Positions 2,946-60,597 of a stretch of DNA of 64,000 bases are shown one piece after another; positions within the stretch are counted from its first letter, which is position 1; the number at the start of each line of letters is the position of its first letter. The notes under the pieces were generated by a model that had not been told where the DNA came from, did not search any database, and saw only the letters and a list, made by a program, of their open reading frames with translations. This stretch comes from a virus (lineage: Duplodnaviria; Caudoviricetes): the IMG/VR virus record IMGVR_UViG_3300029286_001711. One strand, given 5' to 3'. A program made the position numbers and the translations under genes.

Positions 2946-3542
2946 ATGGGAATATACGTTAGAAATCGAAAAACATTAGAGATGAAAAAAGTATCTCACA
3001 CAAAATTCACAACTTTAATTGCAACATTTTTGGTTGTTTTTTTAATAACTTTAAGAATTGGTTATGGACTTGGATATGATGTGGGTAAAAAAACTCAATT
3101 AAAAGAAAGTGATGTAGTCCTAATATTCAACGATTTAGAAAATACTAGTTTTACACCCAAAAAATTTTATGAATACTTAAAACAAGTTAATATTAAATTC
3201 CCAGAGATTATATTCGCTCAATCAATGAAAGAGTGTGGTTTTAAATCATCACTTTTTAAAAACAACAATAACCTTTTCGGAATGAGGGAGGCTAGTAGAA
3301 GACCTAATCTACAAAGTGATATCGTAAACGGTTATGGGTATTATGATAATTGGAAATTATCGGTAATTGATTATGCTTTATATCAAGCCAACATAGGTGT
3401 TAATAAACTTAAAACCGAAGACCAATATTTAGAATTTATTAAGGAAATGGGGTATTTTGATGTTGACCACCCAAATAATGTTACCTACCTATCTGACGTA
3501 AAATCTATCGCTAAAAATATTGAAAAATATATTAAAGAGTAG
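2946..3542 (+). CDS. glucosaminidase/FlgJ-like peptidoglycan hydrolase with N-terminal TM helix
   Basis: Hydrophobic segment LIATFLVVFLITLRIG; motif IIFAQSMKECG...NNNLFGMRE typical of the glucosaminidase family. Confidence 0.7.
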   Translation: MGIYVRNRKTLEMKKVSHTKFTTLIATFLVVFLITLRIGYGLGYDVGKKTQLKESDVVLIFNDLENTSFTPKKFYEYLKQVNIKFPEIIFAQSMKECGFKSSLFKNNNNLFGMREASRRPNLQSDIVNGYGYYDNWKLSVIDYALYQANIGVNKLKTEDQYLEFIKEMGYFDVDHPNNVTYLSDVKSIAKNIEKYIKE

Positions 3543-3812
3543 ATCCTGGTTTTTTACCACCATAAGGTACTTTCATAACTGGAAATTTATCCCCAGTTAA
3601 TCTATGACCCTTTCTAGGTAATTCTATTCTATCAATATCATGAAATTGTAAGAATTTTTCTACTTCTGCTTTAAATAAATCCATTACTTCACGGTGTGCT
3701 AAATCTGGGTGATTTTTTTAATATCAACCATTAATTCAACTAACGTATCTTGAATAGTAGAGGCACCCTCTTTAATTAGTCTTTGTACTTTTTTATAACC
3801 CTCGTTAATCAT
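3532..3812 (-). pseudogene. frameshifted ORF (about 95 aa if one base is restored in the A7 run)
   Basis: MINEGYKKVQRLIKEG...DIKK continues in the -1 frame as NHPDLAHREVMDLFKAEVEKF...GSTL*; break at the T7 run 3713-3719 (+ strand). Confidence 0.55.
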
Positions 3813-5265
3813 TTTGTATATCTTTAGGTTGACCACCAATTTCTGGTGTTATAGATTTTAATTCTTCAAATACAACTAATTTAAGTTCTTTTACAAATGA
3901 ATCTTGTAATTCTTTAAGGAAGAATGTACCCATTTTACCAAAATACATTAAACCCGATATGTTTGTTATACACTTATGTCCACCACTATTAGCTTGGATT
4001 ATATCCCAACCAGAGATTGTTAACATTTTAAGTGCTTTTCTTTCTCTATCGTTTAAAGTGGTATATGGTTTATCTAAAATCCTTTTTATTGCGTTTTGCC
4101 ATCTTTCTACTGTGTAATCAGGTGCTGCACCGTTGGGTACTGTATTTAATCCGTTAACTGTTTCACCGTATATAGCAATTAAATCGTTATATGTGAAACC
4201 AACACTCTCAGCCTCAAAAGATTTATGTTTTTCACCAAAGTATTTTAATGAATCGACAGTTACTCTAAAATCTCTTAAAGCGGTCTCAGATTTACTTAAT
4301 ACCCTTTGTGCTATTTCCCCTAAGTTAACACCCTTTAATGTTCTTTCAGATTTAAAAGGATTACAACTAGCTTGTAAAAGACCTAATGGCCATGCAATAA
4401 CCAAAAAGTTAGCGTCTGGAAAATTCTTGAAGGGAACATAACGGTCATAAGCCCCAGGTTTCATTAGTGGACCACCACCATATTGTGATATAATACCAGT
4501 TACAGAATCGTATTTAACCTTATCACTGGCTTTCATTGTCTCACCGTAAGCCATAGCGTGTTGAGTCATTACCTCTGGTGAAATATAACCCTCTTCTTTA
4601 GCCAATCCAACTATGTTTTGGTATATGTTTAAAAGAGATGGGGTACAACCCATAACTAGTCTTTCTAAAAATCTCGGTTTGTTTTTGTAAGCTAACAAAA
4701 GTTTATTAGTTACAAGAGCCATGGCTTTCTTATTACTCTCAAGACTTTTTTCTTTATCTAAAGAGAAAACAAACTTCATAACCTGCTCTGGTGTAATACC
4801 TAACTTAGCATAGTTAGCACTATCTACTGTAGATATCATCAAGACATCCAAATGTGGAAATATTTCTTTTGGTGAAACTATTTGTGAGATAGTTTCAACA
4901 TTAGACCTAGCTTGTCTAAAAGATTTAGAAGTTTCAGCTGATGTACCGATTTGTTTATCGTGGTGGTCAGTATGAATTATGAACATAGGTTTACCGTGAG
5001 CAAAGTCAACTAAGACTGGCATGATATCACCTTTAGCCATCGGTTTTTTAATAGCAAATTCTCTGTCACCGTATTGGATAACTTCACAATCAACCACTTC
5101 AATTCCATAACTTTCTAAATAGTTTTTCATTGCAATAGCTGTTGTAACACCATCAGTATCTTGATGAAAATAAATCTTTGCACTCTCATATCTTTGAGCT
5201 AGTTCTTTGATGTTTCTAACACCAGATTCTAAAAGGATATTTTTTTCTAATAGTAAAGTCGACAT
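3805..5265 (-). CDS. DHH-family phosphoesterase with LLE leader
   Basis: HQDTDG (DxD), VLVDF, HTDHH, C-terminal SGGH; N-terminus MSTLLLEKNILLES. Confidence 0.75.
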   Translation of the reverse strand: MSTLLLEKNILLESGVRNIKELAQRYESAKIYFHQDTDGVTTAIAMKNYLESYGIEVVDCEVIQYGDREFAIKKPMAKGDIMPVLVDFAHGKPMFIIHTDHHDKQIGTSAETSKSFRQARSNVETISQIVSPKEIFPHLDVLMISTVDSANYAKLGITPEQVMKFVFSLDKEKSLESNKKAMALVTNKLLLAYKNKPRFLERLVMGCTPSLLNIYQNIVGLAKEEGYISPEVMTQHAMAYGETMKASDKVKYDSVTGIISQYGGGPLMKPGAYDRYVPFKNFPDANFLVIAWPLGLLQASCNPFKSERTLKGVNLGEIAQRVLSKSETALRDFRVTVDSLKYFGEKHKSFEAESVGFTYNDLIAIYGETVNGLNTVPNGAAPDYTVERWQNAIKRILDKPYTTLNDRERKALKMLTISGWDIIQANSGGHKCITNISGLMYFGKMGTFFLKELQDSFVKELKLVVFEELKSITPEIGGQPKDIQND

Positions 5266-5287
5266 TAAAATTCTTTTATAATAAATA

Positions 5288-5509
5288 TCACGATCTTTTA
5301 TTCAATTCTTCTTCTTGAATTTTTATGTATTTATCCAAATATTGTTTAGCTTTGTATAAATCCTGAATCCCATTCTTATGTTTCCAACGTGTAACATATT
5401 TAACGACATTACCCTCAAAAAAATCGAGGTTATGTTGTGCCGAGTAGTCCCACATCTCTGTTTTTCCTTGATTGTAGTGGGATGGGTGTGTAACTTGTTC
5501 TTTATTCAT
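5288..5509 (-). CDS. DUF3310-like phage protein
   Basis: VTHPSHY...FFEGNVVKYVTRWKHKNGIQDLYKAKQYL signature. Confidence 0.85.
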   Translation of the reverse strand: MNKEQVTHPSHYNQGKTEMWDYSAQHNLDFFEGNVVKYVTRWKHKNGIQDLYKAKQYLDKYIKIQEEELNKRS

Positions 5510-12685: not shown

Positions 12686-14389
12686 TTATATATCGGTTGG
12701 AATTATGTAATAAAAAGTACCAGCTATTTGTACCATCCAATAATCACCTGTACTACTAAAATAATCTACATCTCTTCCGTTAGCTAAATCAGTAACTACA
12801 GCTTCCTCATCGATTCCAACCAGACCCCTATCAAAGGCATCCTTACTTGGTTTTCCGTCTTCCCACCAACCCCAATCTTTCATCCAACGAATAGGGTCTT
12901 GCATTTCTTCAATATATCTTTCTTTATAAACGTTATAAAGTTTTGCCTTCATATAATCAAAAAGGTCATTTAGTTCATTTTCTATTTTTTTTCTATCCTT
13001 ATTTATTCCACCAAGTTTTATTTCATACTCATATTTACTAATCTCTTCTTCTTGGAAAGATTTTTTTAAATTATCGATATAAGTGTCAATGGTTTTAAGA
13101 TTTTTTTGTAAATTTAAATAGTATGTGTGATTCTCTTTTTGAAACGGTTCAACGTTATCCAATATTTCTTCATCACTTAAGTCATCGATATAACTATCAG
13201 TTAACTCACGGGCTATTGTTGCCTGGTCTCTTATGTAATAATAATCAGCACTAATATATTCTATAGTTGAAAGGATACCATTCAAATCTACAAACTCTCT
13301 GGCCCAGTCAACTTTAGCTACATCAATATCATCTTCATCACCCACCATATAACCTGTATTACCCCAGATGCGTTCTAGACTGTAAACTTTTAAACCGTAG
13401 TTGGTGTAATGTAACTCTTCAATCTCTTCAGCATCCTCTTGTGTTAATTGAAACTGTTCAACTAGGGCCTGAATATGTGGGTTATCGACAAATCCGAGAT
13501 TTTTATACATCTCAGCCATTTCCCTTTTCATATAATCTGAAATAGCTTTAATTACATTTTGGGGTACTGTTTTTAGGTATTCTTCAGCGGTATCAACATA
13601 AGAATAATATGTTAAATCATTATCCTGAGCATCCCATAGTTTTAAACCTGTTAATTTAACATCAAAACTTAATGGGTCTATAACTGTATCTATGTTCTTT
13701 GTATAAGGAATTTGCCAAGCGATTTTATAAGTATCATCGTCTTTAGTTAGATTTTTATTAATAACATAAATAAGAAACTTACTAGTCGTTTCACGAGTAA
13801 AGTGTGATGAGGTCTCTTTTGATGTTGTACACCATTTAGTGCCCGCACCATAATGACAAGAAGACTCCCAATTTTTAGGTCTTAGAACTAACCAATTTTT
13901 GTCTTCATAAATTTTATCAATACCTTTTCTAAGTTCTTTCTCTTTATCTTTCTTTTCTTTTCTAGTAAATGCTTCATGTATGTCGTTTATTAAATAGTGA
14001 ATCATTTCACTATCGGTAAATTTATATTGGTATAAATCTGTCGTACCTTCTTTTTTACCATCTTCATTAGTGTGAACCAGGTATGGTAATAACTCATGGA
14101 ACCTTATTACTAAATTTAAAATTTCATTCGCTGTTTCTATATGTGCTTCAGTAAAGGCAGTATTGTGTTTTTCTTCGGTATACCCAAGTAAATCACCATT
14201 TATAGAATGAACGGTTGGTAGATGGTCAATTGCCTTAACCATCCATTCCAAATATTTTTGATTACCAGAAGGATCATTCCTTACGAAAAAGTCGATTAAA
14301 TCGGGGCTAACATTAGGAAATTTCTTCTTAACATCATCAATTCTATTCTCTAATAAAACTTCTTTTATTCTTTCTAATAACATTCCCAT
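12686..14389 (-). CDS. DPSG-KYL / SCxYGxxTxWC family protein, paralogue 1
   Basis: LLENR leader, DPSGNQKYLEWM, SCHYGAGTKWCTT; acidic C-terminal half. Confidence 0.8.
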   Translation of the reverse strand: MGMLLERIKEVLLENRIDDVKKKFPNVSPDLIDFFVRNDPSGNQKYLEWMVKAIDHLPTVHSINGDLLGYTEEKHNTAFTEAHIETANEILNLVIRFHELLPYLVHTNEDGKKEGTTDLYQYKFTDSEMIHYLINDIHEAFTRKEKKDKEKELRKGIDKIYEDKNWLVLRPKNWESSCHYGAGTKWCTTSKETSSHFTRETTSKFLIYVINKNLTKDDDTYKIAWQIPYTKNIDTVIDPLSFDVKLTGLKLWDAQDNDLTYYSYVDTAEEYLKTVPQNVIKAISDYMKREMAEMYKNLGFVDNPHIQALVEQFQLTQEDAEEIEELHYTNYGLKVYSLERIWGNTGYMVGDEDDIDVAKVDWAREFVDLNGILSTIEYISADYYYIRDQATIARELTDSYIDDLSDEEILDNVEPFQKENHTYYLNLQKNLKTIDTYIDNLKKSFQEEEISKYEYEIKLGGINKDRKKIENELNDLFDYMKAKLYNVYKERYIEEMQDPIRWMKDWGWWEDGKPSKDAFDRGLVGIDEEAVVTDLANGRDVDYFSSTGDYWMVQIAGTFYYIIPTDI

Positions 14390-14426: not shown

Positions 14427-15224
14427 ATGATGGTAAATTCAATTTTTGATACAGAATATAAAACGGTGATAAATAATATCTTAAGGGACATTTATCGTGG
14501 CACCGAATATTGGGGTGTTGGTGAATCTGGGACTGAGGGTGTTATTAGACCCATTACAGATGAAGATGATCCAACCTGGTCTAACTATAATTTTATTAAT
14601 AGTCATTGGACGGTAAAAGATACTATCGTTATACCTTACTTGAGAAGGTTATATAATGTCGGTTTCGAAAAGGATAAGAGTTATAAAGAGAGTGAGATTA
14701 ATGCAAACTTTTTTAAAGTATTATGGGATGTTAGAGAAGAGTTATTTTCTCCTGACTCTAACTTAAGAAATGACATTGTAGAGGCTATTAATAAAACAAG
14801 AAAAAAGGGTGTTGAAAGAGAGAACTATGTGAAGTTAGCTTTAGAAACCTTAAGAGGTGTTACTGTTGAACCAGTAGCTGAAGCTGGGGGTGTTCAAGAT
14901 TTCATGGGAACCGATTTAATTATACACTCACATAACCCATCATTTAATAACCTTACAGCACAAGTTAAACCCTTTAGAAATTTAACAAATGACACTGATA
15001 ATTGGTTTGTTGAGACCGATGCTTTAAGAAGAGAATACACCCAAGATTTAATGATATTCGGTAAACTAAGTGGTCAAGAATATCATGTCGCTATTTTTAA
15101 AAATAAACCTAAACTTTTTGTAATAGAAGATAAAAGGGTTACCATCCCTAAAAATTTAATTGTACTTTTAATTAACTACAATATTTTTAACAAGAAAAGT
15201 AAGTTTAAACTTTATCGTAATTAA
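14427..15224 (+). CDS. hypothetical, possible PD-(D/E)xK nuclease fold
   Basis: QDFMGTDLII...TAQVKP resembles a D-G-x-D...Q-V-K catalytic layout. Confidence 0.5.
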   Translation: MMVNSIFDTEYKTVINNILRDIYRGTEYWGVGESGTEGVIRPITDEDDPTWSNYNFINSHWTVKDTIVIPYLRRLYNVGFEKDKSYKESEINANFFKVLWDVREELFSPDSNLRNDIVEAINKTRKKGVERENYVKLALETLRGVTVEPVAEAGGVQDFMGTDLIIHSHNPSFNNLTAQVKPFRNLTNDTDNWFVETDALRREYTQDLMIFGKLSGQEYHVAIFKNKPKLFVIEDKRVTIPKNLIVLLINYNIFNKKSKFKLYRN

Positions 15225-16477
15225 CAAAAGTTAATACCTTGTGTTGGTTTCTGTAAATCAATATCTACTCTTTGTGGTGTTAGCTGAACACTTTTTGTTT
15301 GATTATTATAAACATACCCCACTACTTTTTCTTTTAACGGTCTAAATCTAATTGATAATCTATGGTCTTTAGAACAATCTCTTTGTCCTTTATTAGACCA
15401 GTAAAATTCAAAGTTTTTTTGACCCTTCTCATCAATTCGAGGGATTAAAATGTTTTTATCGTACATAATACCGTTTATATGGTTTTCAGCCTCAGTAATA
15501 ATAGATTTACCTTCATCTTTAAGGTAGTTATAAACATTATCTATGATTCTATTATAAAAAAACCTAAATTTTTCTTCGTCAACACCCTCTTTTTCTAGGT
15601 TGGTTTTTAGGTCAGAATTTTTATAGATTGCATAAAATTCGGACATGTAACTATCAGTTGCGTAGTCCATTTTTTTAACTTCTATGTAAGATCCTTTAGG
15701 GAAAATAACTTTGTCCCCAACTTTTAAATTATTGACAACCCTTAAATCAGCTTTAGCGGTTTCAAAAATTTCAGCTTTATTTTTAACTATAGTATCTATA
15801 ATACGTTTATATAGAAAATTTTCTTTTAAATTACCCTTATAAACTAATAGAACTAATTTCCAGAATGAATTAACTTCTAAATCAAGATTAGGCATACGCC
15901 AGCTACCACCTATATACTCAAAATTATCACCAACAAAACTTCTTTCATACTCTTGATGTCCAATCATACGAACGTTCTTTAGTAACTCTTCCATATTTTC
16001 TAATGTAAAATCATCACCAGACGACAGTAATTTATGTAATGCATCTCTAATAGATTTTTTAGTTGTCTCTAAAACCTCACCACTAGTTAAAACAACGTGG
16101 CCCTTTTTCATGGTTGACGCTAAAACTCTTATCGCGTTACCAAAATAATCTAAACCTAAAATAGTTTCAATTACATTACGAAAAACCGTTGTATTATTGA
16201 TTTTTAAATCAACCTTGAAAAAATTATAAATAGTATTAATATCTTCTAATAACTCATTCTGTTCCGTAAGTCCAAGTTCTAAAATTTTATCTCTTAGCCC
16301 ACAATAAATGGAATCAGTTTCTTTAGAACATAATTCTGTTAATGCATCTATATTTTCAATTAATAATCCTCTACGTTGTTGTGCAGATTCATTAACACTG
16401 TCTCGTCTTTGTAAGGCTTCTTTAATGTGTAACCCTCTACGTTGTAAAGCTCTCTCTTTATGTCCTTGTACTGCCAT
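15221..16477 (-). CDS. hypothetical with tandem N-terminal repeats, possible nuclease-like C-terminus
   Basis: ALQRRGLHIKE/ALQRRDSVNES/AQQRRGLLIEN; KADL...YIEVK. Confidence 0.6.
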   Translation of the reverse strand: MAVQGHKERALQRRGLHIKEALQRRDSVNESAQQRRGLLIENIDALTELCSKETDSIYCGLRDKILELGLTEQNELLEDINTIYNFFKVDLKINNTTVFRNVIETILGLDYFGNAIRVLASTMKKGHVVLTSGEVLETTKKSIRDALHKLLSSGDDFTLENMEELLKNVRMIGHQEYERSFVGDNFEYIGGSWRMPNLDLEVNSFWKLVLLVYKGNLKENFLYKRIIDTIVKNKAEIFETAKADLRVVNNLKVGDKVIFPKGSYIEVKKMDYATDSYMSEFYAIYKNSDLKTNLEKEGVDEEKFRFFYNRIIDNVYNYLKDEGKSIITEAENHINGIMYDKNILIPRIDEKGQKNFEFYWSNKGQRDCSKDHRLSIRFRPLKEKVVGYVYNNQTKSVQLTPQRVDIDLQKPTQGINFC

Positions 16478-16478
16478 A

Positions 16479-16745: not shown

Positions 16746-16793
16746 AATTTAATGTTTGATAAAATATAAACATTATAATTATAATACTGAATG

Positions 16794-17192
16794 TTATTCT
16801 TCAAGTTCACCATCTTCTAAATCACGAAGGTATTCTAAACTCTCAACAACCCATTCTATGGCCTCGATTAACTGTTCCATATAAAATTCAGAATACTGTT
16901 CTTCAGGGTGTATTTCAACTAAAACATCTGGTTCTTTTGTTTGGATAACTCTTAAATCTTCAACGATATCGTTCAAACCATGAACCATATCACTAAATGC
17001 CTCTTTTGTGTCATCACCAAAAGAGGTAACACTTCCTTCTGGAAATTCACCAGCCTCTTCTGTACGTTCACTAAGATACTTTTTGATAGCTCTATCAATC
17101 TTAGATTCGTTCACAACACTACCATCACGTCTTAGTTTTTCTCTAATGATATTTGTAACACTATTTTTATTGAGCCTAATTTTTCTACTCAT
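16794..17192 (-). CDS. acidic helical protein with IRL/IIRE/VNE leader
   Basis: MSRKIRLNKNSVTNIIREKL...VVNES; TATTTATA upstream. Confidence 0.65.
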   Translation of the reverse strand: MSRKIRLNKNSVTNIIREKLRRDGSVVNESKIDRAIKKYLSERTEEAGEFPEGSVTSFGDDTKEAFSDMVHGLNDIVEDLRVIQTKEPDVLVEIHPEEQYSEFYMEQLIEAIEWVVESLEYLRDLEDGELEE

Positions 17193-17249
17193 TTTTACTC
17201 TTTATTTAATTATAAATATATCTTAACTTAAGATAATAAAGAATAATAT

Positions 17250-17727: not shown

Positions 17728-17766
17728 ATTATATAAATATAATACTGTTTATATAAAATAAATCCT

Positions 17767-17774: not shown

Positions 17775-17778
17775 TATT

Positions 17779-18681: not shown

Positions 18682-18684
18682 TTT

Positions 18685-19138: not shown

Positions 19139-19143
19139 TTTTT

Positions 19144-23083: not shown

Positions 23084-23382
23084 TGGAACTCAAAGAATTT
23101 TTAGACAAGGTTGTCGGCAGTGGCTCCCTTCATCAAAACGACGATGGGTTGTGGAAAATTCAACCCTATGAAATTGTTATTGAAGATAATAATAGGGGAC
23201 ACATTAGTGGTTTCCTCTCATTTAAAGGTGAAAGATTTCAAGATTTTAGTGCGTCAGGTCAGGATATTAAAACCGTTGAAGGTTTTGTAGAATCTTTAAA
23301 TCATGGATATACTCAAGCAATTAAAGATGTTATTATAAATGGTAACATTGGAAATACTATTAAACCTTTTAAATTCGTTTAA
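23083..23382 (+). CDS. small protein with C-terminal KPFKFV tag
   Basis: 99 aa, ends GNTIKPFKFV. Confidence 0.6.
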   Translation: MELKEFLDKVVGSGSLHQNDDGLWKIQPYEIVIEDNNRGHISGFLSFKGERFQDFSASGQDIKTVEGFVESLNHGYTQAIKDVIINGNIGNTIKPFKFV

Positions 23383-41813: not shown

Positions 41814-42224
41814 TCATTTCATTTTACACCAATACTTACTTGGGATTAACTCTTCCGTAAACCATTTGAAGGAAACATCTTCGTAACCATTCTTATCAGC
41901 ATCTTCACTTTCAGGGTCTTCATAATCATAACACCTTGAGGATTCTATTGAATAGTCTTTAGCGTTGTAGGTTGTATTTTCAGGATCACAAGGTTTATAC
42001 TTAATAATAAGCCCACCTTTTTCATCGGGGATAATATCAGCAATTGTCAGAACGTATCTAGCATCTGTTGGTTGATAATCATCAGGAGATGGGTTGGTTT
42101 TCTGGGGATTATTATTATCAACAACATAGAAAACATCACCAATGTTAATGTTTAAACCTGATACTGCCTCTCTAGCCCATTCCAGGTCGTCGATTTCTTC
42201 TTTTATGATTTTTCTAATATCCAT
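41814..42224 (-). CDS. single-module member of the linker family
   Basis: MDIRKIIKEEIDDLEWARE (leader fused to the EW linker), then NIGDVFYV. Confidence 0.75.
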   Translation of the reverse strand: MDIRKIIKEEIDDLEWAREAVSGLNINIGDVFYVVDNNNPQKTNPSPDDYQPTDARYVLTIADIIPDEKGGLIIKYKPCDPENTTYNAKDYSIESSRCYDYEDPESEDADKNGYEDVSFKWFTEELIPSKYWCKMK

Positions 42225-42225: not shown

Positions 42226-43611
42226 TTATTCTATAACAATAATATCTACCATATCTTCATTAATCCAATAAGGTAGGTCTAAAACATTATCAGTTAAACA
42301 CTCAACAAGTTGAGCACTCAGAACATCCTCATCGATATCCATACCAAAATTAAAACCAGCTTCACAATCAGAACCACTTCTCACCATCTGTTTAATTTTA
42401 CCTATTCTAAATACTTGTTTAAACCACCATTCAACATTACCATTAAATGAACACAAATCTAAGGATTCTTTAAAATAATCACTACCATTTGATTTTGGGA
42501 TAAGTTTAAATTTTAGTTTATCAAGATTTTTAGGGTTACTTTGTTTAAAGACATCCCAATAGTTTTCAACCCCAGAAACCAAATCTCTGGCCCATTCCAA
42601 TTCATCTTCTTGTTCTCTAATTTTACTAACTCTCTTCCTAGCTGGTCTATACCCGTCAGCATTAATTATAAAATGTTTACCATCTGATTTTCTCACCAGA
42701 TGTGAAATTCTTTCATCGTATTCATTAGTCTCCGTGTTATTGATTAGGTAACAAATATCACCGTTTTCTGGTGTCCCTAATGATGGTACTTGTTGATGTA
42801 AAAATAATGTCCCAACATCACCTTTAATGCCCTCACCCATTTCATATCTACGTGATAAATTATGATAATCTTCACTATCCCACCAATGTTTTCCATATTT
42901 CTGATTAAACTCTTCCATACCTGGAATTTTTACATTTAACATAAATTCTGTATAGGTCGGATAATAAGCCGCACTTCTGGTAACCACAACTTCTGGAAAT
43001 TTAGTTAGTTCCTTAGCCCATTCAAAATCATCTTCAGATTCATTTAGATTACTCTCCACAACTTTCCAAGCACCACTATTCAAAATCTTTAAAAGTTTGC
43101 CTATATCAAAAGGTGTACCTTTTGATGGGTATGAAGCCGGTAAGTTTGCTGGTAAAATATATACAACCCTATCTGTAACTTTTGTTATAACAGCTAATAT
43201 TGGTGAACCACCTGGTATTTTTGATGGTATTGAAAATTTCTGACCAACTTTAAGAAGATTGGTACTATCTAAGTCTTTAACCCAAGATAAATCATCTTCA
43301 GATTCATATAACTGGCCAAAGAAATCGGTATTTTGAATATCAGGTGGAATTAGAGTGAACCAATCTTCATAGTTTCGACCAACCACATCTTTTTGTACAG
43401 TAAATCTAGCAGTATGTTGACCACGATTTCTAACCCCTCCAATACTAATGATATCTTCTCCACGATTACCACCCCTAGATTCAAAGTTGGTAACTTCAAC
43501 ATAATCACCCACCTTTGGCCCAACACCTTCCGTATGGCAATACAAAAAATCTCCGACCTTGGGTACCGGCTTTAATGATTCTTTAATTATTTTACGGATA
43601 GAGTTTCTCAC
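42226..43611 (-). CDS. linker-joined multidomain protein C (4 modules)
   Basis: Likely GTG 43611 after TATTTAT; IRKIIKES leader; QLYESEDDLSWVK, LNESEDDFEWAK, IREQEDELEWAR. Confidence 0.85.
   Translation of the reverse strand: MRNSIRKIIKESLKPVPKVGDFLYCHTEGVGPKVGDYVEVTNFESRGGNRGEDIISIGGVRNRGQHTARFTVQKDVVGRNYEDWFTLIPPDIQNTDFFGQLYESEDDLSWVKDLDSTNLLKVGQKFSIPSKIPGGSPILAVITKVTDRVVYILPANLPASYPSKGTPFDIGKLLKILNSGAWKVVESNLNESEDDFEWAKELTKFPEVVVTRSAAYYPTYTEFMLNVKIPGMEEFNQKYGKHWWDSEDYHNLSRRYEMGEGIKGDVGTLFLHQQVPSLGTPENGDICYLINNTETNEYDERISHLVRKSDGKHFIINADGYRPARKRVSKIREQEDELEWARDLVSGVENYWDVFKQSNPKNLDKLKFKLIPKSNGSDYFKESLDLCSFNGNVEWWFKQVFRIGKIKQMVRSGSDCEAGFNFGMDIDEDVLSAQLVECLTDNVLDLPYWINEDMVDIIVIE
42587..42622 (-). 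repeat. ESED-EW linker copy
   Basis: KIREQEDELEWAR. Confidence 0.8.
43011..43050 (-). repeat. ESED-EW linker copy
   Basis: NLNESEDDFEWAKE; 26 nt identical to 29203-28. Confidence 0.9.
43275..43323 (-). repeat. ESED-EW linker copy
   Basis: FFGQLYESEDDLSWVKD. Confidence 0.85.
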
Positions 43612-45455: not shown

Positions 45456-46205
45456 TTAGAAAGGGTAGTCTGACTTATTAAAACTATTAACAATTAAATC
45501 ATTATCAGTGGGGAATTTATGTGGGTTTACCTCTATACAATCTTTTCCTCTTCCTATATTAATAGCTTCCCAACCACTAGGTCTTTCCCCTGGGTTTTTT
45601 AACCAAGAAAAATGAAAGCCATCATCGTAACGGTTTTCAACCTCAAAAGGTTCACTATTTAAAATTAATAAAATATCACCATCATCACCCTTGATTTCAC
45701 CACTTAGGGTGATTTGGTCGCCTTTCTCTAAATGTTTCCATACAGATTGTAATGTTATTTCTGATTCTAATGATTGTTTAGCCCAATCTAGTTCATCTTC
45801 GGATTCATATAATTTATTAAAAGCATCTTCAGTTGAGGGTGTGTTATGGAACTTACTAATGAAATCTCTATAAGGTATAAAAATGTAGTCTTGATTTATA
45901 AAACCATTTGGGTTTCCCCAAAAGATATGAGTACCTTGAGTGATATCAGTATCATAATAACCAGCACCAATACCTAAATCTCTACCCCTCATTAAGTAGT
46001 CTTCTATCACAATATCAATATCCGCATCAGTCCAATCCCTATTACTCTCAAGAGGTGAAGGAACCCCATTTACCCTGAAAAAATCAAGAACCATTTTAAT
46101 ATCTTCTTTTTTTGCTGATGGAGTAAAAATCACCATCTTTCCTAAAATAGGGTTAGTAGAGTCGACATATTCTTCCCTTAATATTTTACGGATGGAGTTT
46201 CTCAC
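45456..46205 (-). CDS. linker-joined multidomain protein D (2 modules)
   Basis: Likely GTG 46205; IRKILREE leader; AFNKLYESEDELDWAKQ. Confidence 0.8.
   Translation of the reverse strand: MRNSIRKILREEYVDSTNPILGKMVIFTPSAKKEDIKMVLDFFRVNGVPSPLESNRDWTDADIDIVIEDYLMRGRDLGIGAGYYDTDITQGTHIFWGNPNGFINQDYIFIPYRDFISKFHNTPSTEDAFNKLYESEDELDWAKQSLESEITLQSVWKHLEKGDQITLSGEIKGDDGDILLILNSEPFEVENRYDDGFHFSWLKNPGERPSGWEAINIGRGKDCIEVNPHKFPTDNDLIVNSFNKSDYPF
45777..45826 (-). repeat. ESED-EW linker copy
   Basis: AFNKLYESEDELDWAK. Confidence 0.88.
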
Positions 46206-50386: not shown

Positions 50387-51940
50387 TTAATGAATCTTTT
50401 TAGCCTTTTCCATCATCGCTTTTCTAATTTCGAGTGGTATTTCATTACCACCTTTACCCATCCACTCATCTAATAAATTATGACTGGTTACAATACCATA
50501 TAAATTACCATTAGCGAAACGTGCTCTTAACATCATCATCTGTAATGAATGGTGATGTTGAGGGTCAAATCTGTCAACCTTAATAATACTTTCAATATCA
50601 ATTGATTTTTCATATTTTGGTTCACCATTTTTATCTACACCAACTTCCATTGGTTTAATAGAACCTACAAAGAAATAACTTGATGATGCACTATATGCTT
50701 CCCATTGTTCTGGAGTCATTGTCCATTTATCAACGAATATTTTAGTATCATTACCAGCTTCAGTAACATTTGGTTTACCACCATTTTTCTCAACAACAAG
50801 TGCGGCTAATTCTCTATTTTGATTTTCATCAAACGATTTAGTAATTTTAGTGAATGCTTCTTGTGAGTGTAAATCTTTTAATGTTTCTTTGATATTCTTT
50901 GATGATTCTATCATCTCCTTTAATAAAGAGAAAACAACTTGATTACCTAATTTAGCACGAACTTTATTACCGTTCTCTGAATTCTCATAGAATGCTAACC
51001 AGTTATCATTTCTAATAATTGTTAATATTTGTTCTGGGGTGTAAACATTTTCTGCAACGAAAGTAAGGAAATCGTTTTTCAATCTACTATCACTTCCACT
51101 TCTTTTGTAAAATCCTGGTGTGACTAATAATCTTTCAATTTCTCTTTGTTTATGATTTAATAAATCTTGTGAATGATGTCTTTCAACAGCTGTCGCTATT
51201 TCGGGTGTAAACCAATCCATATTAGGACTACCAACCCAAGCACTAAACCCTGTGTCAGCTTGGTTAAACCAATTCTTTTTGTTTCCACTATAACTCCAAT
51301 AAAGGGCTACTTTCTCACCTAAATTACCAGGAAATGCCCCACCTTTTTTTCTTAAGAAATAATAAAGAACACCGTCACGACGATAATTCTCAAATGTGTG
51401 TGGATTCTCTCTAGAAGTTGTACACCAACGTGATGTAGCACCATATATACAAGATGCGTTATGAGTTTTAGGTGCCATTACAACAATATCATCATTCTCA
51501 TAAATCTTGTCAGCTTGTTTCTTTAATTCGTCTTTTTCTTTTTTCTTTGAAGTGATAGTACCGAAAAAATCAGTAAAATGTCTTAAATGTGCTAAAGACG
51601 GAAATGAATTAATATCTTTTGGTGACTTTTCCATTCTCGCAAAAGCTGTATCATCACCACCCCAAGTACCTTTTTCAGCCTTATATTCAGCTAAATTATT
51701 AGCATTGATAAGGTTTAGGTTAGCGTTATAAAGTCTTACTAATTGTAGAATTTCTTCAGGGTTTTGTGTGTTAACAAATACCTTAACCATCCACTCAAGG
51801 TATTTGTTATTCCCTGAAGGATCGTTTTGTGACAAGTATTCGATAATTTTCTTATCAACTTTCGGGTATTTGGCCATTACATCTTCCTTACGGCCTTCCG
51901 TTAATACTTGTTCGTTTAAGAGATTATATAATGAATTCAT
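50387..51940 (-). CDS. DPSG-KYL / SCxYGxxTxWC family protein, paralogue 4
   Basis: LLNEQVLTEGR leader, DPSGNNKYLEWM, SCIYGATSRWCTT. Confidence 0.8.
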   Translation of the reverse strand: MNSLYNLLNEQVLTEGRKEDVMAKYPKVDKKIIEYLSQNDPSGNNKYLEWMVKVFVNTQNPEEILQLVRLYNANLNLINANNLAEYKAEKGTWGGDDTAFARMEKSPKDINSFPSLAHLRHFTDFFGTITSKKKEKDELKKQADKIYENDDIVVMAPKTHNASCIYGATSRWCTTSRENPHTFENYRRDGVLYYFLRKKGGAFPGNLGEKVALYWSYSGNKKNWFNQADTGFSAWVGSPNMDWFTPEIATAVERHHSQDLLNHKQREIERLLVTPGFYKRSGSDSRLKNDFLTFVAENVYTPEQILTIIRNDNWLAFYENSENGNKVRAKLGNQVVFSLLKEMIESSKNIKETLKDLHSQEAFTKITKSFDENQNRELAALVVEKNGGKPNVTEAGNDTKIFVDKWTMTPEQWEAYSASSSYFFVGSIKPMEVGVDKNGEPKYEKSIDIESIIKVDRFDPQHHHSLQMMMLRARFANGNLYGIVTSHNLLDEWMGKGGNEIPLEIRKAMMEKAKKIH

Positions 51941-52754: not shown

Positions 52755-53945
52755 TTAGTATTCACCAGTCGCGTCGTATTTTAACGAATATAATCTACCC
52801 ACGTTCCTGAATAGTTTTTGACCACCCTTCTCAATTTGGTTACCCATGTATTTAATCAGTGATTTTAAATCTTTTTGTTTAATGAATTTCTCATCTAATA
52901 CCTCATGTGATTCTTTAGCTTTAGTGATATATGTTTTAACTACACGCATTCTTATTTGATTAAAAAATGCATTCATTTGTTCTTCATTGACCTCTTCACC
53001 TTTAGATTCATAATATATAGTCACAGAATTAACTAATTCATCGTAAAAACTTTCGTAGTCAAAATCCATTAACTTTTTAACTCTTTTACCTTGAAAGGAT
53101 TCAAAAAATTCATTGACAGACATATCCAAAACATATGGATACATTTCCTGTGTAATAGCTTTAACTTCAGCTGGCAATGCCCAATAATATAACATATATA
53201 AATTACTGATTGCATCTTTAACAACAGTCGGTATACCAACTAGTTTAGCGTCACTCAAATATGCTTTAGATGTTTCAGTTTTGTTCTTCGGTAATTTAGT
53301 TTTTTCAAGTGTATCAAGATGAAAAACCCTCTCATCCTTAGATTTATCTTTGTAACCTTCATATAGATGATGCATTTCATGAAAAACAACCGCACTTAAT
53401 TCTTTTTCAAGTGCCCCATTTTCAGTATTAAAATCAAAATTCTTATATACAGAGATATCGAATTCTGTCTTACCGATTAAAACCCTATCAATAGATTCTC
53501 TTCTCTTTTTAGATATTGGGTATTTCTCTGGTTTATCTCTGTGACTTAAAGATACAGTAGGTGTTTTGTATACAGGCCATGCACCACCACCGATGATGAA
53601 ATTACCTCCACTTGGTGAGTAACTTCCTCGTCCGTCTTGGTCTATCAAATTCATTTTAAGGTCGATGATTATCTTAACCATAGGAAAATCTTCAAAGATA
53701 TCATCATCAATATACTTAGCTAAAACCCTGTAAGGTAACTCTATTGTTGTAACATAATCAGGTACCAAACCTCGTATTTCACTAGTCCATTCCAAATAGG
53801 CCTCGTCTTTAATTTTTTCAAGGAAATAAGCAATGTGTTTGTCTAATACGTTCATGACCGCATGTGTATATGGAACTGTTGATTCTGCTATACCTCTTGC
53901 TTCATTTAGTTTTATTTTACCCATTTCTTTTAATAATGGAATCAC
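52755..53945 (-). CDS. zincin-like (HExxH) protein with LNE leader
   Basis: VFHEMHHLY plus downstream PAEVKA; KIKLNEARG. Confidence 0.6.
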   Translation of the reverse strand: MIPLLKEMGKIKLNEARGIAESTVPYTHAVMNVLDKHIAYFLEKIKDEAYLEWTSEIRGLVPDYVTTIELPYRVLAKYIDDDIFEDFPMVKIIIDLKMNLIDQDGRGSYSPSGGNFIIGGGAWPVYKTPTVSLSHRDKPEKYPISKKRRESIDRVLIGKTEFDISVYKNFDFNTENGALEKELSAVVFHEMHHLYEGYKDKSKDERVFHLDTLEKTKLPKNKTETSKAYLSDAKLVGIPTVVKDAISNLYMLYYWALPAEVKAITQEMYPYVLDMSVNEFFESFQGKRVKKLMDFDYESFYDELVNSVTIYYESKGEEVNEEQMNAFFNQIRMRVVKTYITKAKESHEVLDEKFIKQKDLKSLIKYMGNQIEKGGQKLFRNVGRLYSLKYDATGEY

Positions 53946-54426
53946 TTCCCTTTAATTGATAAGTATACCCTTGAGGTAGATTACCTTTTAAATAAATACT
54001 ATTCAATCTTGCTCTTTTATTAGTACTGTTTTTAATTCTATCAATAATTTCAGTTGCTGAAGATGTCTTCAACGCTTTAAAGGTAGCACTAACCTCTTTC
54101 TGGGTATTAATATGTGGTATTCTAATTAAAATCGGGTTGAACTCGTTAATGAAATCTATAGTAATCTTAGTAATAGTTGATAAAACTTTATAAACATCAC
54201 CAGTTCCTGTTTCGTCATATTTACCATCTGCGGTATATTCTCTTTCCCAAACATCGTCAGGGAATCTAGTAAATTTAACTAAATAGTTAGCACCACTTTT
54301 GTCTTGGAATTTATATCCAATATCATCATGCCAACCCTGTTCAAATGGGCCAGTCCAAGAGTAATGGTTTTCAATACCACCAACCTCTAGAATTAAAGCT
54401 TCTTTTATTATTTGTTTAAGATTCAC
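53917..54426 (-). CDS. IIKE-leader family protein (paralogue of 58183 and 58861)
   Basis: MNLKQIIKEALILEVG; DVYKVLSTI..I; RARL. Confidence 0.7.
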   Translation of the reverse strand: MNLKQIIKEALILEVGGIENHYSWTGPFEQGWHDDIGYKFQDKSGANYLVKFTRFPDDVWEREYTADGKYDETGTGDVYKVLSTITKITIDFINEFNPILIRIPHINTQKEVSATFKALKTSSATEIIDRIKNSTNKRARLNSIYLKGNLPQGYTYQLKGSDSIIKRNG

Positions 54427-55722: not shown

Positions 55723-56034
55723 TTACTTCAGACTGTCAATTAACTTTCTAGAATCTTTGATGGTAAGTAACTTATCCCTTAAAAGATTAAGTTTCTCAGT
55801 TAATTGTGGAACAAAATTTGGGTTGGATTTCATGAATTTTTTCATAGTTGTAAATAAAACAACACCAGACCTAAAATGAATATCAATAATTTTGGCATAA
55901 TCCTCAGTACTGAGATAAGCTTTTAACTTAGTATCCCAAGAATCATACCAACCAAGAATGCGGCTCAATGTTTTATCCATTTCCACTTCTTCTTTTAATA
56001 TTCTTTTTATTATCTGCCTACTTAACAAATCCAT
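55723..56034 (-). CDS. ILKEE-leader protein
   Basis: Likely ATG 56034: MDLLSRQIIKRILKEE, after TATTTATA. Confidence 0.65.
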   Translation of the reverse strand: MDLLSRQIIKRILKEEVEMDKTLSRILGWYDSWDTKLKAYLSTEDYAKIIDIHFRSGVVLFTTMKKFMKSNPNFVPQLTEKLNLLRDKLLTIKDSRKLIDSLK

Positions 56035-57047: not shown

Positions 57048-57383
57048 TTAATAAATGAAATCTTCTTTATTATTTTCATCCGAATTGGATAAGCCGTAAC
57101 AACCAACTAAGTCCCTTAGTTTGTGTAGATAGGTATCTACGTTGTCATTGTTAGTATCAGCATTTTTGATATCATGCCTAAATTGTTGTATGATATTCTT
57201 GAATTGGGTTAATTTATTTTTATCTTTAATTTCAGATTTAGCACTTTGTTCTATTCTGTTGATTAAAGATAATGCTTGGTCATTTGACATATAACCACCC
57301 TTACCACTACCATTTGGTGAGACTAAGTGGCATAAAAGTTGTTCTTTAAGTAACTCTTCTTTTATAATTCTTCTGATATTCAT
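57048..57383 (-). CDS. IIKEE-leader protein
   Basis: MNIRRIIKEELLKEQ. Confidence 0.65.
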   Translation of the reverse strand: MNIRRIIKEELLKEQLLCHLVSPNGSGKGGYMSNDQALSLINRIEQSAKSEIKDKNKLTQFKNIIQQFRHDIKNADTNNDNVDTYLHKLRDLVGCYGLSNSDENNKEDFIY

Positions 57384-58159
57384 TATCTATCTCTATGGAC
57401 ATACTCCATCTTATTAAGCTTACGAATTATTTCATCACTTTTTCTATTAAAGTATTTAACAGAGGCTCTTAAAAATGAATTGTAATCTTTATATTTTTTA
57501 ACCAAAGGTATATCGAGTGATGAAAGAGTTTCCCAGTTTTTTTGTAACTGGTCTGGGTCTTCATAATAAGCCTCTTTAAAAATGTCGGTTTCCCTTATCT
57601 TATTAATCATCTTACGATAATCGTTTATGTAGTCATTATCATAAACATTTTCCATGAAAGCGTCAACTTCTAAGTCTGATAATAAATAATAGAATTTCAA
57701 TATCTCTTTGAAGAACGTACCGACCACTATACGGTCTTTAACAACTTTTACAAAATCACTAGTGTATAGTTCTTTAGATTCTTTGGTGTGTGAAATACTT
57801 GGATATCCCTTTCTTTGACGTTCCCAATCTTGATATGCATGCTTTAATTCATGGTTAAGAATTGTTAACATATACTCATTATCTCTAAACCTATTTAAGA
57901 CCATAATATGTGCAACATAGTTACCGTCTTTATCGTAACCAGAGGTTTCATCTAAGTAACCATTTGTCCAATCATTAAAATCAATAACAAAGTAGTCTAC
58001 AGAAAATTTCTCATAAAGTTCTGGATAATCTTGACCGTCTATAATTAATCTTGTTTCAGATTCATCTAGATTACCTAAAAGGTAATAGATAACTTTAGCC
58101 CATTCTCTAACTTTGAATGAAATACCTACAGCCTCTTTTATTAATTCTTTATTTTTCAT
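57383..58159 (-). CDS. zincin-like (HExxH) protein with LIKE leader
   Basis: LNHELKHAY plus LEVDAF; paralogous layout to 52755..53945. Confidence 0.6.
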   Translation of the reverse strand: MKNKELIKEAVGISFKVREWAKVIYYLLGNLDESETRLIIDGQDYPELYEKFSVDYFVIDFNDWTNGYLDETSGYDKDGNYVAHIMVLNRFRDNEYMLTILNHELKHAYQDWERQRKGYPSISHTKESKELYTSDFVKVVKDRIVVGTFFKEILKFYYLLSDLEVDAFMENVYDNDYINDYRKMINKIRETDIFKEAYYEDPDQLQKNWETLSSLDIPLVKKYKDYNSFLRASVKYFNRKSDEIIRKLNKMEYVHRDR

Positions 58160-58182: not shown

Positions 58183-58836
58183 CTAACGTTTCAATTTATT
58201 TTTCATACGATGAAATGTTTTCTCTAAAGGTGATTCAATATCATCATATTGTTCATTTCCTTCGTCGTATTCGTACTCAACACTTTTATCTACTGTAATA
58301 AATGTTGCACCATTTTCCATTCTTAAAATTTCAGATCCTGGTATTTGATTTTCAAAGTATCTTTGAAATAACTTACCTCTCGAATCGGTTGCTGGCATAA
58401 AAACAAATCCCCTGACTTTTTGAATTTTCATTAAGTCTTTAACAATTTCAGATAATGTAGACATTATCCTGTAAATCTCTATTTTATCTGTTTTATATTC
58501 ACTTGCACTTATGGTTATATTAGGATCATCTACTGGTTTATCTTTAAATTCTACAGCACTAAATTCGGTGTCCCAATAATAATAAGGGTGTTCTAAAACA
58601 TCTTCAACCTTATGTTTAAGGGCTTTACGATGTGAAATAAGAAGTTGGTTTAAACTATACGGTCTAACCAGATGAAAACTTACTTCTATTTTAAGTCCAG
58701 AACCACCTTTTGTTTTAAAAGCGTAACCAACTAAGTGGGGCATGTTTATTTTTAACTTCCACTTATATGGTTGTGAGGTACCTTCACCGATTTCTAATAA
58801 GAGAGATTCTTTAATTATTTGTTTAATAAGATTCAT
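58183..58836 (-). CDS. IIKE-leader family protein
   Basis: MNLIKQIIKESLLLEIGEG; EIYRIMSTL..I; SRGKLF. Confidence 0.7.
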   Translation of the reverse strand: MNLIKQIIKESLLLEIGEGTSQPYKWKLKINMPHLVGYAFKTKGGSGLKIEVSFHLVRPYSLNQLLISHRKALKHKVEDVLEHPYYYWDTEFSAVEFKDKPVDDPNITISASEYKTDKIEIYRIMSTLSEIVKDLMKIQKVRGFVFMPATDSRGKLFQRYFENQIPGSEILRMENGATFITVDKSVEYEYDEGNEQYDDIESPLEKTFHRMKNKLKR

Positions 58837-58860: not shown

Positions 58861-59562
58861 TTAGAGGTTTAACACAAAGAAGAATTCGTTGTCGTCCACC
58901 CACACTTTAGAGCCGGGCATTTGTTTCATTATGAAATGTGAAAAGACACGACCCCTTCTATCATCATATGGGGTGAATGTTAAAACCCTACCACCATGTT
59001 TTTGAAAATGATTTTTTACAATTTTTACGATGGTTGCCATGACACGGAAAAACTCACCTTTGTTGGCTTCATCATAACCACTGTGTGTTCTACTTTGTAC
59101 TGTATGTATTTTTGGTGTGTCATCAACGGGTGCGTCCATATCTACGTCACCGTATCTCGTATAAGATGTGTATGTATTTGCTGTATAAGTTTCCTCGACT
59201 CTTGGACTGTCAGAGATTGAAAACCCGACACTCCATACACTTTTTAAATCATCTCTAGTTAAACCCATTTTCATTAGGTTAACATATTTTTTCCTATCGT
59301 ATTTATACATTGAGGTTAATTCTTCTTTCCAATCTTTATCGGTAGGTTTAAAACCAAAATTTTCACGATTTAATTCACGTTGAATCACTACATCATATGT
59401 AAAACCTTCTTTAGTTTTAAAGGTATAGTTAAAAACATCCTTTTCTTTTCTATGTTCGTATGGTGTTGAATACCCCATATTCTTTTTAAACCTAAAAGGA
59501 GTTTTACCCGCATCACCAATCTCGTTCAACAAAGAATCTTTTATTATGTTTTTAATACCCAT
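58861..59562 (-). CDS. IIKD/LLNE-leader family protein
   Basis: MGIKNIIKDSLLNEIGDAG; EFFRVMATI..I; RRGRVF. Confidence 0.7.
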   Translation of the reverse strand: MGIKNIIKDSLLNEIGDAGKTPFRFKKNMGYSTPYEHRKEKDVFNYTFKTKEGFTYDVVIQRELNRENFGFKPTDKDWKEELTSMYKYDRKKYVNLMKMGLTRDDLKSVWSVGFSISDSPRVEETYTANTYTSYTRYGDVDMDAPVDDTPKIHTVQSRTHSGYDEANKGEFFRVMATIVKIVKNHFQKHGGRVLTFTPYDDRRGRVFSHFIMKQMPGSKVWVDDNEFFFVLNL

Positions 59563-59575
59563 AATAATAAATATC

Positions 59576-59737
59576 TTAAGATGTTTTGTTCTCTGGTTCT
59601 TCAGTTAAAACTTTTGTTTTACACACTTTGTGACATTTACCACAAAAGAAAACCGACATATCCATCAATCCTAATCCCGTACTTGGGAAATGATTAACAT
59701 TTGAATTACAACACACACTTACTACTTTTTTTTTCAT
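59576..59737 (-). CDS. 53 aa Cys-rich Zn-ribbon-like protein
   Basis: My translation MKKKVVSVCCNS...FFCGKCHKVCKT... Confidence 0.5.
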   Translation of the reverse strand: MKKKVVSVCCNSNVNHFPSTGLGLMDMSVFFCGKCHKVCKTKVLTEEPENKTS

Positions 59738-59760
59738 GATCATTAAATATTTATTTAAGT

Positions 59761-60597
59761 ATGAAAGTAATTCGTCTAAATGAAAATGATATCGAAAAGT
59801 TAGTTAAAAAAATCATCAAAGAAGAAGGTGAAAATTTTGATTGGATTGGGGATATTGGACAATATGACTTGTTTGGTTATTATGTTGGTAAACCAGTGGA
59901 GAAGTTAACTGGTGTATCTAATGGCAATGTTTTAGAGGTTACCGCTATTGTTGGTGATGAAATTGAGTATTTCGTATCTTATAATGGTATGTCTGAAATA
60001 ATAAAAGGTTATCCTTATAGTTCTGAAGGTCCATATTATATGTCTGTTAAGGATTTATTAGATGAACTTCAAAATGGCAATGTAAGTAAATTTCAACTGC
60101 CGATAGATGAATCTCGTTTATTTGGTGAACCAAAGAAAACAGCGGATGAAAGAATTGCTGAATATATTTTACAAAAATTAGAAAAAGAAAGAGCCGACAT
60201 TCAACATCAATTTTTAGATTACACCAAAAATTTTAATAATTTTTATGGTGTTAAATCTAATGTCCCATTGGAGGGTGACTTATTTAGGGTTGATTTTAAT
60301 AATAAATCAAAGAAAATAAACACAGATAATAGTGGACATTTGAGGGGTGGTGATTTTGGTGTGGTTAAGGTTTATGAACCCTGGAATAGGAAAATATCAG
60401 AAAAAAAATTATCCATAAGAGGATACGGTATTGCCTTAACAGGTCAAGAACCCTTAAAAATAAAAGAATCTTTAGTAAGACAAATTTATGATAAGGTTGA
60501 AGAACAGTATGGTGATATTAGAGTATTTAAAAGTCAAAGAAAGTTAGATAAAGGAACTGATGATGAATCAGATATATTTGACCAGTTAACACAATAA
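59761..60597 (+). CDS. leader/linker family protein (2 modules)
   Basis: TATTTAT upstream; MKVIRLNENDIEKLVKKIIKEEGENFDWIGD; internal PIDES junction. Confidence 0.75.
   Translation: MKVIRLNENDIEKLVKKIIKEEGENFDWIGDIGQYDLFGYYVGKPVEKLTGVSNGNVLEVTAIVGDEIEYFVSYNGMSEIIKGYPYSSEGPYYMSVKDLLDELQNGNVSKFQLPIDESRLFGEPKKTADERIAEYILQKLEKERADIQHQFLDYTKNFNNFYGVKSNVPLEGDLFRVDFNNKSKKINTDNSGHLRGGDFGVVKVYEPWNRKISEKKLSIRGYGIALTGQEPLKIKESLVRQIYDKVEEQYGDIRVFKSQRKLDKGTDDESDIFDQLTQ

Follow-up and report, generated by a model that had tools for sequence, protein, structure and literature searches.

The stretch analysed here (the window) comprises 64,000 nt of viral DNA (IMG/VR record IMGVR_UViG_3300029286_001711) and was read as part of the metagenome contig ena:ERZ27250635:k141_1522191 (201,065 bp); our subject is a short N-terminal leader that recurs on the products of 20 of its genes. 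The window has a G+C content of 31-35% and is densely coding, mainly on the minus strand. Head genes lie on this contig at a distance of 8-27 kb from the start of the window, outside it, and comprise those for a terminase (Terminase_6N), a portal protein (Portal_T4), a Peptidase_S77 protease of 270 aa, an acidic scaffold-like protein of 460 aa and a Gp23 major capsid protein of 578 aa; the Pfam families represented there include PF03420, PF07230 and PF07068. Because it carries this set of genes, the source is, to judge from its gene content, an uncultured T4-type phage of ~200 kb. Many genes in the window are preceded by TAnnTTTG, the housekeeping promoter element of Bacteroidota, which points to a Bacteroidota host. 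By their capsid proteins, the nearest cultured relatives are Microcystis phage Mel-JY01 and Flavobacterium phage vB_FspM_immuto (hereafter immuto); a megablast of 20 kb of the window against the phage collection gave no match at the DNA level.

A first-pass annotation of the window had described the leader on about 20 proteins, had taken it for a capsid-targeting propeptide and had connected it with one of two promoter types. In the window the leaders are 9-21 residues long and contain one or two hydrophobic-hydrophobic-x-Glu (hhxE) sites, often in tandem. The genes that carry them are given below, with their position relative to the upstream element ATATTTAT where this is direct; a slash marks the putative cut.

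3699..3812, minus strand: 37-aa protein with MINE and RLIKE/G near its N-terminus
3805..5265, minus strand: DHH/DHHA1-type phosphoesterase, 486 aa; 13-aa leader with LLLE and ILLE/SG; ATATTTAT 15 nt upstream
12686..14389, minus strand: family A, 567 aa; leader ending in VLLE/NR; directly behind ATATTTAT
15221..16477, minus strand: 418-aa protein with an atypical candidate leader; three QRR-containing N-terminal repeats with HIKE, VNE and LIE sites; behind ATATTTAT
16794..17192, minus strand: 132-aa protein; IIRE at residue 18 and VVNE/S downstream; behind ATATTTAT
26143..27462, minus strand: family A, 439 aa; IILE and LLTE/NR; ATATTTAT 5 nt upstream; opens a late unit of three genes
25274..26143, minus strand: candidate HAD-like phosphatase of 289 aa; leader of 21 aa containing ILTE and HLLE/V just before FDWDDN; second gene of the 26143 unit
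23379..25274, minus strand: family A, 631 aa; leader with ILFE and LLNE/GR; third gene of the 26143 unit
42226..43611, minus strand: multidomain protein, 461 aa from a corrected GTG start; 11-aa leader ending in IIKE/S; internal junctions of L-x-E, acidic run and DFEWA
41814..42224, minus strand: 136-aa protein; 9-aa leader ending in IIKE/E, followed by DDLEWAR; 2 nt downstream of the 42226 gene
45456..46205, minus strand: 249-aa protein from a corrected GTG start; 11-aa leader ending in ILRE/E; one internal LYE-SED-ELDWAK junction
50387..51940, minus strand: family A, 517 aa; LLNE and VLTE/GR; behind ATATTTAT; AlphaFold2 model with a mean pLDDT of 94
53917..54426, minus strand: family B, 169 aa, GTG start; IIKE and LILE/VGG; ATATTTAT 6 nt upstream
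52755..53945, minus strand: protein of ~390 aa with an HEMHH motif; LLKE and KLNE/A; overlaps the end of the preceding late gene
55723..56034, minus strand: 103-aa protein from a corrected start; 15-aa leader ending in ILKE/E; terminator hairpin and ATATTTAT upstream
58861..59562, minus strand: family B, 233 aa; IIKD and LLNE/IG; ATATTTAT 4 nt upstream
58183..58836, minus strand: family B, 217 aa; IIKE and LLLE/IG; ATATTTAT 5 nt upstream
57383..58159, minus strand: 258-aa protein with an HELKH motif; 9-aa leader ending in LIKE/A; downstream of 58183; the upstream TATGTTTG also matches the host-type promoter pattern
57048..57383, minus strand: 111-aa protein; IIKE and LLKE/Q; its start overlaps the stop of the 57383 gene
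59761..60597, plus strand: 278-aa protein; 21-aa two-site leader with RLNE and IIKE/E, followed by GENFDWIG

All of the N-termini quoted by the first-pass annotation were found in the translations, although its list called for four corrections. The item placed at 3532 corresponds to the 37-aa gene at 3699-3812 on the minus strand. Genes 42226 and 45456 do carry the leader but begin at GTG codons at 43611 and 46205, 4 nt past ATATTTAT, the apparent IFIN and IFIS residues in front of them being translated promoter. Gene 55723 has its true start at 56034, behind a ATATTTAT copy of its own. Gene 15221 was added as a likely further, atypical member. The description of the proteins as unrelated was too strong: an all-against-all BLASTP places several of them in three paralogue groups (family A, 12686/23379/26143/50387; family B, 53917/58183/58861; and 42226/45456 with 41814), so that the 20 genes, all within 57 kb, represent ~13 independent families.

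The recurrence of the motif is real and highly non-random. In the form originally proposed, 15 copies of it fall within the first 30 residues of the 97 gene products, compared with five in all the rest of their sequence (14,742 residues); the excess is 15-fold (binomial p 2e-13). Residue shuffling within each N-terminus yielded 1.3 matches on average and 7 at most (2000 shuffles), and N-terminal composition therefore does not account for the 15 observed. A motif-free scan of reduced-alphabet 4-mers ranked ph++, hh+-, ++hh and h+-- at the top, which combine into a consensus resembling S-I-R-K-I-I-K-E-E. Since codon choice differs freely from leader to leader, the element is conserved as protein and is not a recently copied DNA cassette.

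The leader is also linked to late expression. Of 30 copies of ATATTTAT, 23 are correctly oriented and stand no more than 40 nt before a start codon, often with a gap of 4-8 nt, and by its position the sequence is a genuine upstream element. All 20 leader genes belong to late units behind ATATTTAT: 13 follow it directly, and the others (six listed in the first pass together with 3699-3812) lie downstream in the same units. The proposed dependence on promoter type was borne out when it was checked on the window, the leader being present in 13 of 27 ATATTTAT genes versus one of 16 TAnnTTTG genes (Fisher p 0.004). It is not a general property of late genes, as tail-fibre-like proteins, a glycosyltransferase, membrane proteins, the portal and the terminase are devoid of it, and the protease and the scaffold-like protein have hhxE sites near their N-termini. 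Both ATATTTAT (e.g., at 41774, 43611, 48501 and 59562) and TAnnTTTG (e.g., at 17779, 20443 and 36528) often end 4-8 nt before the start codon, so that many mRNAs are expected to have little or no 5' leader.

In T4 the head protease gp21 recognises L/I-x-E and cleaves behind its Glu, and gp23 loses 65 residues (PMC9026906, PMC5694885), and the 10-19-residue propeptides of the T4 internal proteins are capsid targeting sequences (CTSs; PMC9026906). In the translated T4 genes the known sites conform to hydrophobic-hydrophobic-x-Glu (gp23 FLTE65, gp24 LLRE10 and gp21 LLIE9). A three-way alignment of Gp23 proteins places VLINE60/S of the present phage and QIVSE/A of immuto in the column of T4 FLTE65/A. 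The Peptidase_S77 protease of the phage retains the His of ELNHP and the Ser of SSRG, aligned with the catalytic columns of T4 gp21; its own N-terminal extension contains LIKE and TLNE sites, and the N-terminus of the scaffold-like protein contains IIEE and ALLE. The leaders thus share their site grammar with the phage's own head proteins at positions cut in T4. A predicted complex between the protease (residues 46-270) and an N-terminal 50-residue piece of the 57048 protein scored 0.00, in a run without controls that speaks neither for nor against recognition.

The behaviour of the leaders among orthologues, which supplies the most forceful of the new evidence, was followed in hundreds of metagenomic sequences from three unrelated leader families (the DHH protein, family A and the HAD-like protein). 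The DHH protein (3805-5265) has 3957 homologues, of which the best 120, the basis of the leader analysis, are 60-100% identical to it, all except its own record at no more than 90%. Their 84 distinct leaders are 6-19 residues long and drift in sequence, yet P1 is Glu in 83 of the 84; in these 83, P3 is invariably Leu or Ile and P4 invariably L, I, V or F. P2 is free, with eight residues represented, whereas P1' holds a small residue (S/T/G/A/V) and P2' holds Gly. Three of these homologues have no leader and begin with Met-Gly-Gly, exactly at P1'. One is truly leaderless at the DNA level as well, since two codons before its start there is a stop in the same frame, and it has a late promoter of its own.

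Family A (query 50387; 3977 representative clusters at 50% identity) presents a similar picture. Its N-terminal domain copies have hhxE-(G/S/N)-(R/K) in 102 of 114 cases, behind leaders of 8-26 residues, with Leu or Ile at P3 in 100 of the 102, and leaderless members again start at P1'; in some lineages the Glu is replaced by Ala. Orthologues of the HAD-like protein (25274) keep two L/I-x-E sites ~13 residues apart, and in one of them the protein's own leader has been replaced by the 23-residue leader of the 59761 type. The latter also heads a different family of 186-190 aa and a 151-aa protein adjoining the capsid gene, and its appearance on unrelated bodies shows, in these comparisons, that the leader is modular. 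As the extension is variable, exchangeable and dispensable while P4, P3 and P1 are fixed and P2 is free, the pattern fits an address tag processed by a protease.

N-terminal enrichment of the sites extends to immuto (28 sites versus a shuffle mean of 9.7), which has leaders of the same kind on proteins such as gp069, gp072, gp076, gp077, gp080 and gp092-095. The region that spans 15989-21587 in Mel-JY01, the nearer of the two cultured relatives by capsid protein, has sites in the protease (IIKE/S) and in the capsid protein (LISE/A), and a bS21 gene is found in its head module. Few leader-bearing genes were seen in the 41 kb of Mel-JY01 examined, so that the expansion of leaders may be specific to a clade of Bacteroidota phages.

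A comparable arrangement occurs within the proteins. Of the 11 (D/E/N)-(F/L/Y)-(D/E/N)-W-(I/V/A/L) motifs in the window, 10 are preceded, a few residues before, by L/I-x-E and an acidic run. Junctions of the LYE-SED-DFEWAK type are located inside the 28623, 30528, 42226, 45456 and 47359 proteins, and the N-terminal leaders of 41814 and 59761 continue in the same manner (IIKE-EID-DLEWAR and IIKE-EGE-NFDWIG, respectively). Leader and internal linker therefore share one junction design, as would suit multidomain precursors that this protease also cleaves. In five late proteins between 28623 and 48501, small domains are connected by the recurrent linker L-x-E-(S/Q)-E-D-D-F-E-W-A-(K/R) (e.g., at residues 105-128 of 28623-29573, minus strand).

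The bodies behind the leaders are diverse, and most of them have no significant match to a family in either Pfam or PHROGs. Of the classes named in the first pass, DHH held on motifs and fold and HAD-like is plausible, the zincin call having HExxH-type motifs in 52755 (HEMHH) and 57383 (HELKH) as its sole basis; a search with the 57383 protein found no sequence in the Protein Data Bank (PDB). The DHH protein has HQDTDG at residue 34, TDHHD at ~100 and SGGH at ~428, and its Atlas model matches DHH/RecJ clusters with a TM of 0.50-0.55. Its Pfam DHH score of 19 bits is below the cut-off of 28.1, so that its DHH/DHHA1 membership is by motifs and fold and not by the curated threshold.

In the 25274 protein the FDWDDN and SDDD motifs are invariant. 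Its model (pLDDT 81) finds its best structural match in the 3'-phosphatase of T4 Pnkp (Z 7.0, below 8; rmsd 3.5 over 126 residues), and most of the other structural matches, whose scores are likewise modest, are also HAD proteins. A HAD-like fold is therefore plausible from the model, although Foldseek against the PDB gave nothing at E 0.001 or better, Pfam gave no match to the family and a profile search found no PDB sequence. The matches to HAD structures begin only at residue 19-23, which would place the leader outside the enzyme core. The family A model (50387, AlphaFold2) is very confident, and for it Foldseek against the PDB gave nothing at E 0.001 or better; a wide structural search returned only helical-repeat matches with Z below 7, and a tblastn search of the phage collection with a family A protein gave no match. 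Hallmarks of this family are DPSGNNKYLxWM and THxASCxYG..TxWC; its ~4000 clusters are mostly viral and are sometimes found inside proteins of 1000-1800 aa. Beside the protease gene (L006:9138-9950) there is a leader-bearing enzyme of the CCA-adding/poly(A) polymerase family (L006:10001-11941), which, together with the Pnkp-like match, gives a hint of an RNA-repair theme among the tagged proteins.

We favour, with moderate confidence, a reading of the leaders as T4-type capsid-targeting propeptides that serve cargo of unusual number and variety. The propeptide interpretation of the first pass thus gains from the T4 head machinery, the T4-like site grammar, the Gp23 site, the conservation among orthologues, the modularity and the restriction to late genes, while its "enzyme arsenal" goes beyond the data, since most bodies belong to no known family; diverse proteins, some of them enzymes, would be a just description. 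In the proposed sequence of events, the leader, a mostly helical N-terminal extension of 9-21 residues produced late, would bind the assembling scaffold core, by analogy with T4 IPI-III, Alt and gp24, and its protein would thereby end up within the prohead, where the gp21-type serine protease would cleave behind the leader Glu and free the mature protein inside the head. We infer core binding, cleavage, presence in the virion and ejection into the host from the comparison with T4.

Several observations weigh against capsid targeting. The cargo that it implies is far above the handful known from T4, with at least 20 genes in 57 kb, several of them coding for 440-630 aa. The late multidomain proteins 28623, 30528 and 47359 have the internal junction without an N-terminal leader. 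Internal hhxE sites are not depleted in the bodies of the leader proteins (28 observed versus 32 expected), although this test is uninformative. In the family A model the leader and the residues that follow form one continuous, fairly confident helix (residues 2-24), and internal copies of family A in giant proteins keep LLxE/GR; the family A motif may for these reasons have a partly structural role there, unless the giant proteins are polyproteins that undergo processing. The DHH gene behaves as a core gene under strong conservation; natural variants without a leader exist, and in many relatives its product (640-653 aa) ends in an ECF-type sigma-70 domain. At this fusion point ILKE is followed by an acidic stretch with DF, as in the internal junctions; a separate sigma-factor gene like the fused one was absent from the ~90 kb of the phage contig examined. 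Core conservation, leaderless variants and sigma-factor fusions suggest that the DHH protein probably also has a job in the infected cell, rather than serving only as cargo.

Some of these observations lend weight to a different account, which we regard as rather unlikely, in which the leader is a docking or regulatory helix unrelated to the capsid and the conserved Glu and Leu/Ile are binding or helix-capping residues. The recogniser could then be a ClpB/ClpC-like AAA+ protein (352-2877) or a late assembly or transcription factory. The continuous helix of the family A model would suit such a role, as would the undepleted bodies and the position of the DHH core gene, which adjoins the Clp-like gene both here and in a relative and is fused to a sigma factor in some relatives. 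A docking helix would not, however, be expected to have a grammar equal to that of the T4 protease sites and of the phage's own capsid maturation site, nor to leave P2 free with P1, P3 and P4 fixed, as is typical of a protease site. Leaderless variants that begin exactly at P1', and the same sites in the protease and the scaffold-like protein, likewise argue against docking.

Cleavage, if it occurs, may also have another purpose. The leaders could be cut by the head protease, or by a related enzyme, and act mainly as inhibitory or timing propeptides or as marks of disposable core and scaffold parts. The T4 core proteins gp22, gp67 and gp68 bear the same sites and are degraded, several of the present bodies are potentially harmful enzymes (phosphoesterase, phosphatase-like and HExxH proteins), and tandem sites would aid the clearance of fragments, as discussed for giant phages. 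We nonetheless consider such a role unlikely, because equally short propeptides suffice for targeting in T4, the bodies are large, folded and conserved, unlike scaffold fragments, and the leaders are too short to be likely inhibitors. It is very improbable, finally, that the motif has no function at the protein level and merely reflects the base composition of an AT-rich genome, or the constraints on translation starts where mRNAs are leaderless. The N-termini are indeed slightly rich in Ile, Lys and Arg, and both promoter types lie only 4-8 nt from many start codons; but the shuffled N-termini fall far short of the observed count, codons vary between leaders, other late genes with the same promoter spacing have no leader, and the Glu and Leu/Ile are near-invariant across hundreds of orthologues while their neighbours drift.

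The concept of capsid targeting is that of the T4 CTS; the novelty lies in the scale and the classes of protein, in sites that occur in tandem, in leaders that are exchanged naturally and in their distribution across a large clade of aquatic phages. As in T4, a short N-terminal extension (~10-20 residues) that ends in L/I-x-E is found on late proteins of a phage with a Peptidase_S77 protease, a T4-type portal, a scaffold-like protein and a Gp23 whose site aligns with Glu65. In both cases the tag is modular, in T4 by engineering and in the present phage by natural swapping. Similarity to the T4 CTS is limited to the grammar of the cut site. T4 has three small basic proteins and Alt, compared with at least 20 genes in ~13 families here, many of 250-630 aa; the present phage also often has tandem sites and has the same junction inside multidomain proteins.

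Among T-even phages, polymorphic internal-protein loci combine a conserved CTS-like leader with variable bodies, according to work cited in PMC9026906, where such a leader is also mentioned as a general means of bringing novel proteins inside the capsid. Both systems pair a conserved leader with bodies that are diverse and evolve fast. The T-even loci concern a few small basic proteins at one hyperplastic site, whereas the leaders reported here occupy many late units and protein classes in a whole clade, that of aquatic Bacteroidota phages.

In the giant phages phiKZ, 201phi2-1 and SPN3US, the propeptides of inner-body and ejection proteins are cut by a diverged gp21 homologue; 8-19 head proteins, including enzymes, are processed after Glu, and the propeptides have been proposed to target the prohead (PMC5694885, PMC7411985). 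Many head proteins processed after Glu at a short motif, with several sites per propeptide, would be a feature shared with the present phage. Their motif, however, is S/A/G-x-E and their propeptides mostly exceed 100 residues (PMC9026906, PMC5694885); here P3 is Leu or Ile instead of Ser, Ala or Gly, and the leaders have 6-26 residues, which sets them apart from the phiKZ/SPN3US type. The giant-phage cases are backed by virion mass spectrometry, whereas the present leaders were read from genome sequence. A more remote parallel is offered by encapsulins, in which a short terminal peptide also addresses unrelated enzymes into an HK97-fold shell, a likeness of mechanism and not of ancestry. Encapsulin cargo-loading peptides are usually C-terminal and uncleaved, and they bind the shell protein directly, without scaffold or protease. 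Our literature search turned up the precedents in T4 and in giant phages; neither an account of the present leaders nor a virion proteome of immuto or Mel-JY01 was among its results.

More tentatively, a whole clade of aquatic, T4-like Bacteroidota phages that includes immuto could load dozens of enzymes by means of an exchangeable hhxE leader and polyprotein junctions, the virion delivering a ready-made takeover and RNA-repair proteome along with the DNA; we regard this extension as possible but doubtful. Its cargo may include the DHH phosphoesterase, the Pnkp-like phosphatase, the HExxH proteins and, just outside the window, the CCA-adding enzyme and an SprT-like protein. If true, the scale would match that of the phiKZ-like inner body while using the short tag system of T4.

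Should the leaders work as in T4, a sequence rule would allow the injected proteome, usually invisible without virion proteomics, to be read from the genome. Such a proteome also includes factors for anti-defence and host takeover, T4 IPI and Alt being examples. The rule would cover thousands of metagenomic proteins from abundant Bacteroidota phages of lakes and seas, and would flag large families of unknown fold, family A among them, as candidate ejected effectors. A natural, exchangeable packaging tag in a cultured Flavobacterium phage would make the question directly testable, and could provide a tool for loading foreign proteins into capsids outside T4 and E. coli.

The genes at both edges of the window are phage-borne and not of host origin. 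At the left edge, 352-2877 on the plus strand codes for a phage ClpB/ClpC-like double AAA+ protein (Clp_N, UVR and two AAA modules). This Clp-like gene adjoins the DHH gene, a neighbourhood kept in a distant relative (L009:2882-5347). At the right edge, 60627-63767 on the minus strand codes for a protein of 1046 aa whose N-terminus resembles a signal peptide; it has GEVED and PKD domains, and at its C-terminus a CHU_C sorting domain of the type IX secretion system; with such a domain, the product of this phage gene would use the secretion system of the host.

Between ~34750 and 35930, 1.2 kb of the otherwise dense genome are free of tRNAs and of ORFs longer than 66 aa; Rfam had no match there, nor anywhere else in the window. 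Within this region, at 35093-35308, a 22-nt inverted repeat (95% complementary) flanks 172 nt. Further on, at 37264-39125 on the minus strand, eight consecutive small genes each have the start context (C/G/T)-(A/T)-A-T-A-A-G-A-(A/T)-ATG, which represents either a conserved stop-GAA-start junction or a third upstream signal.

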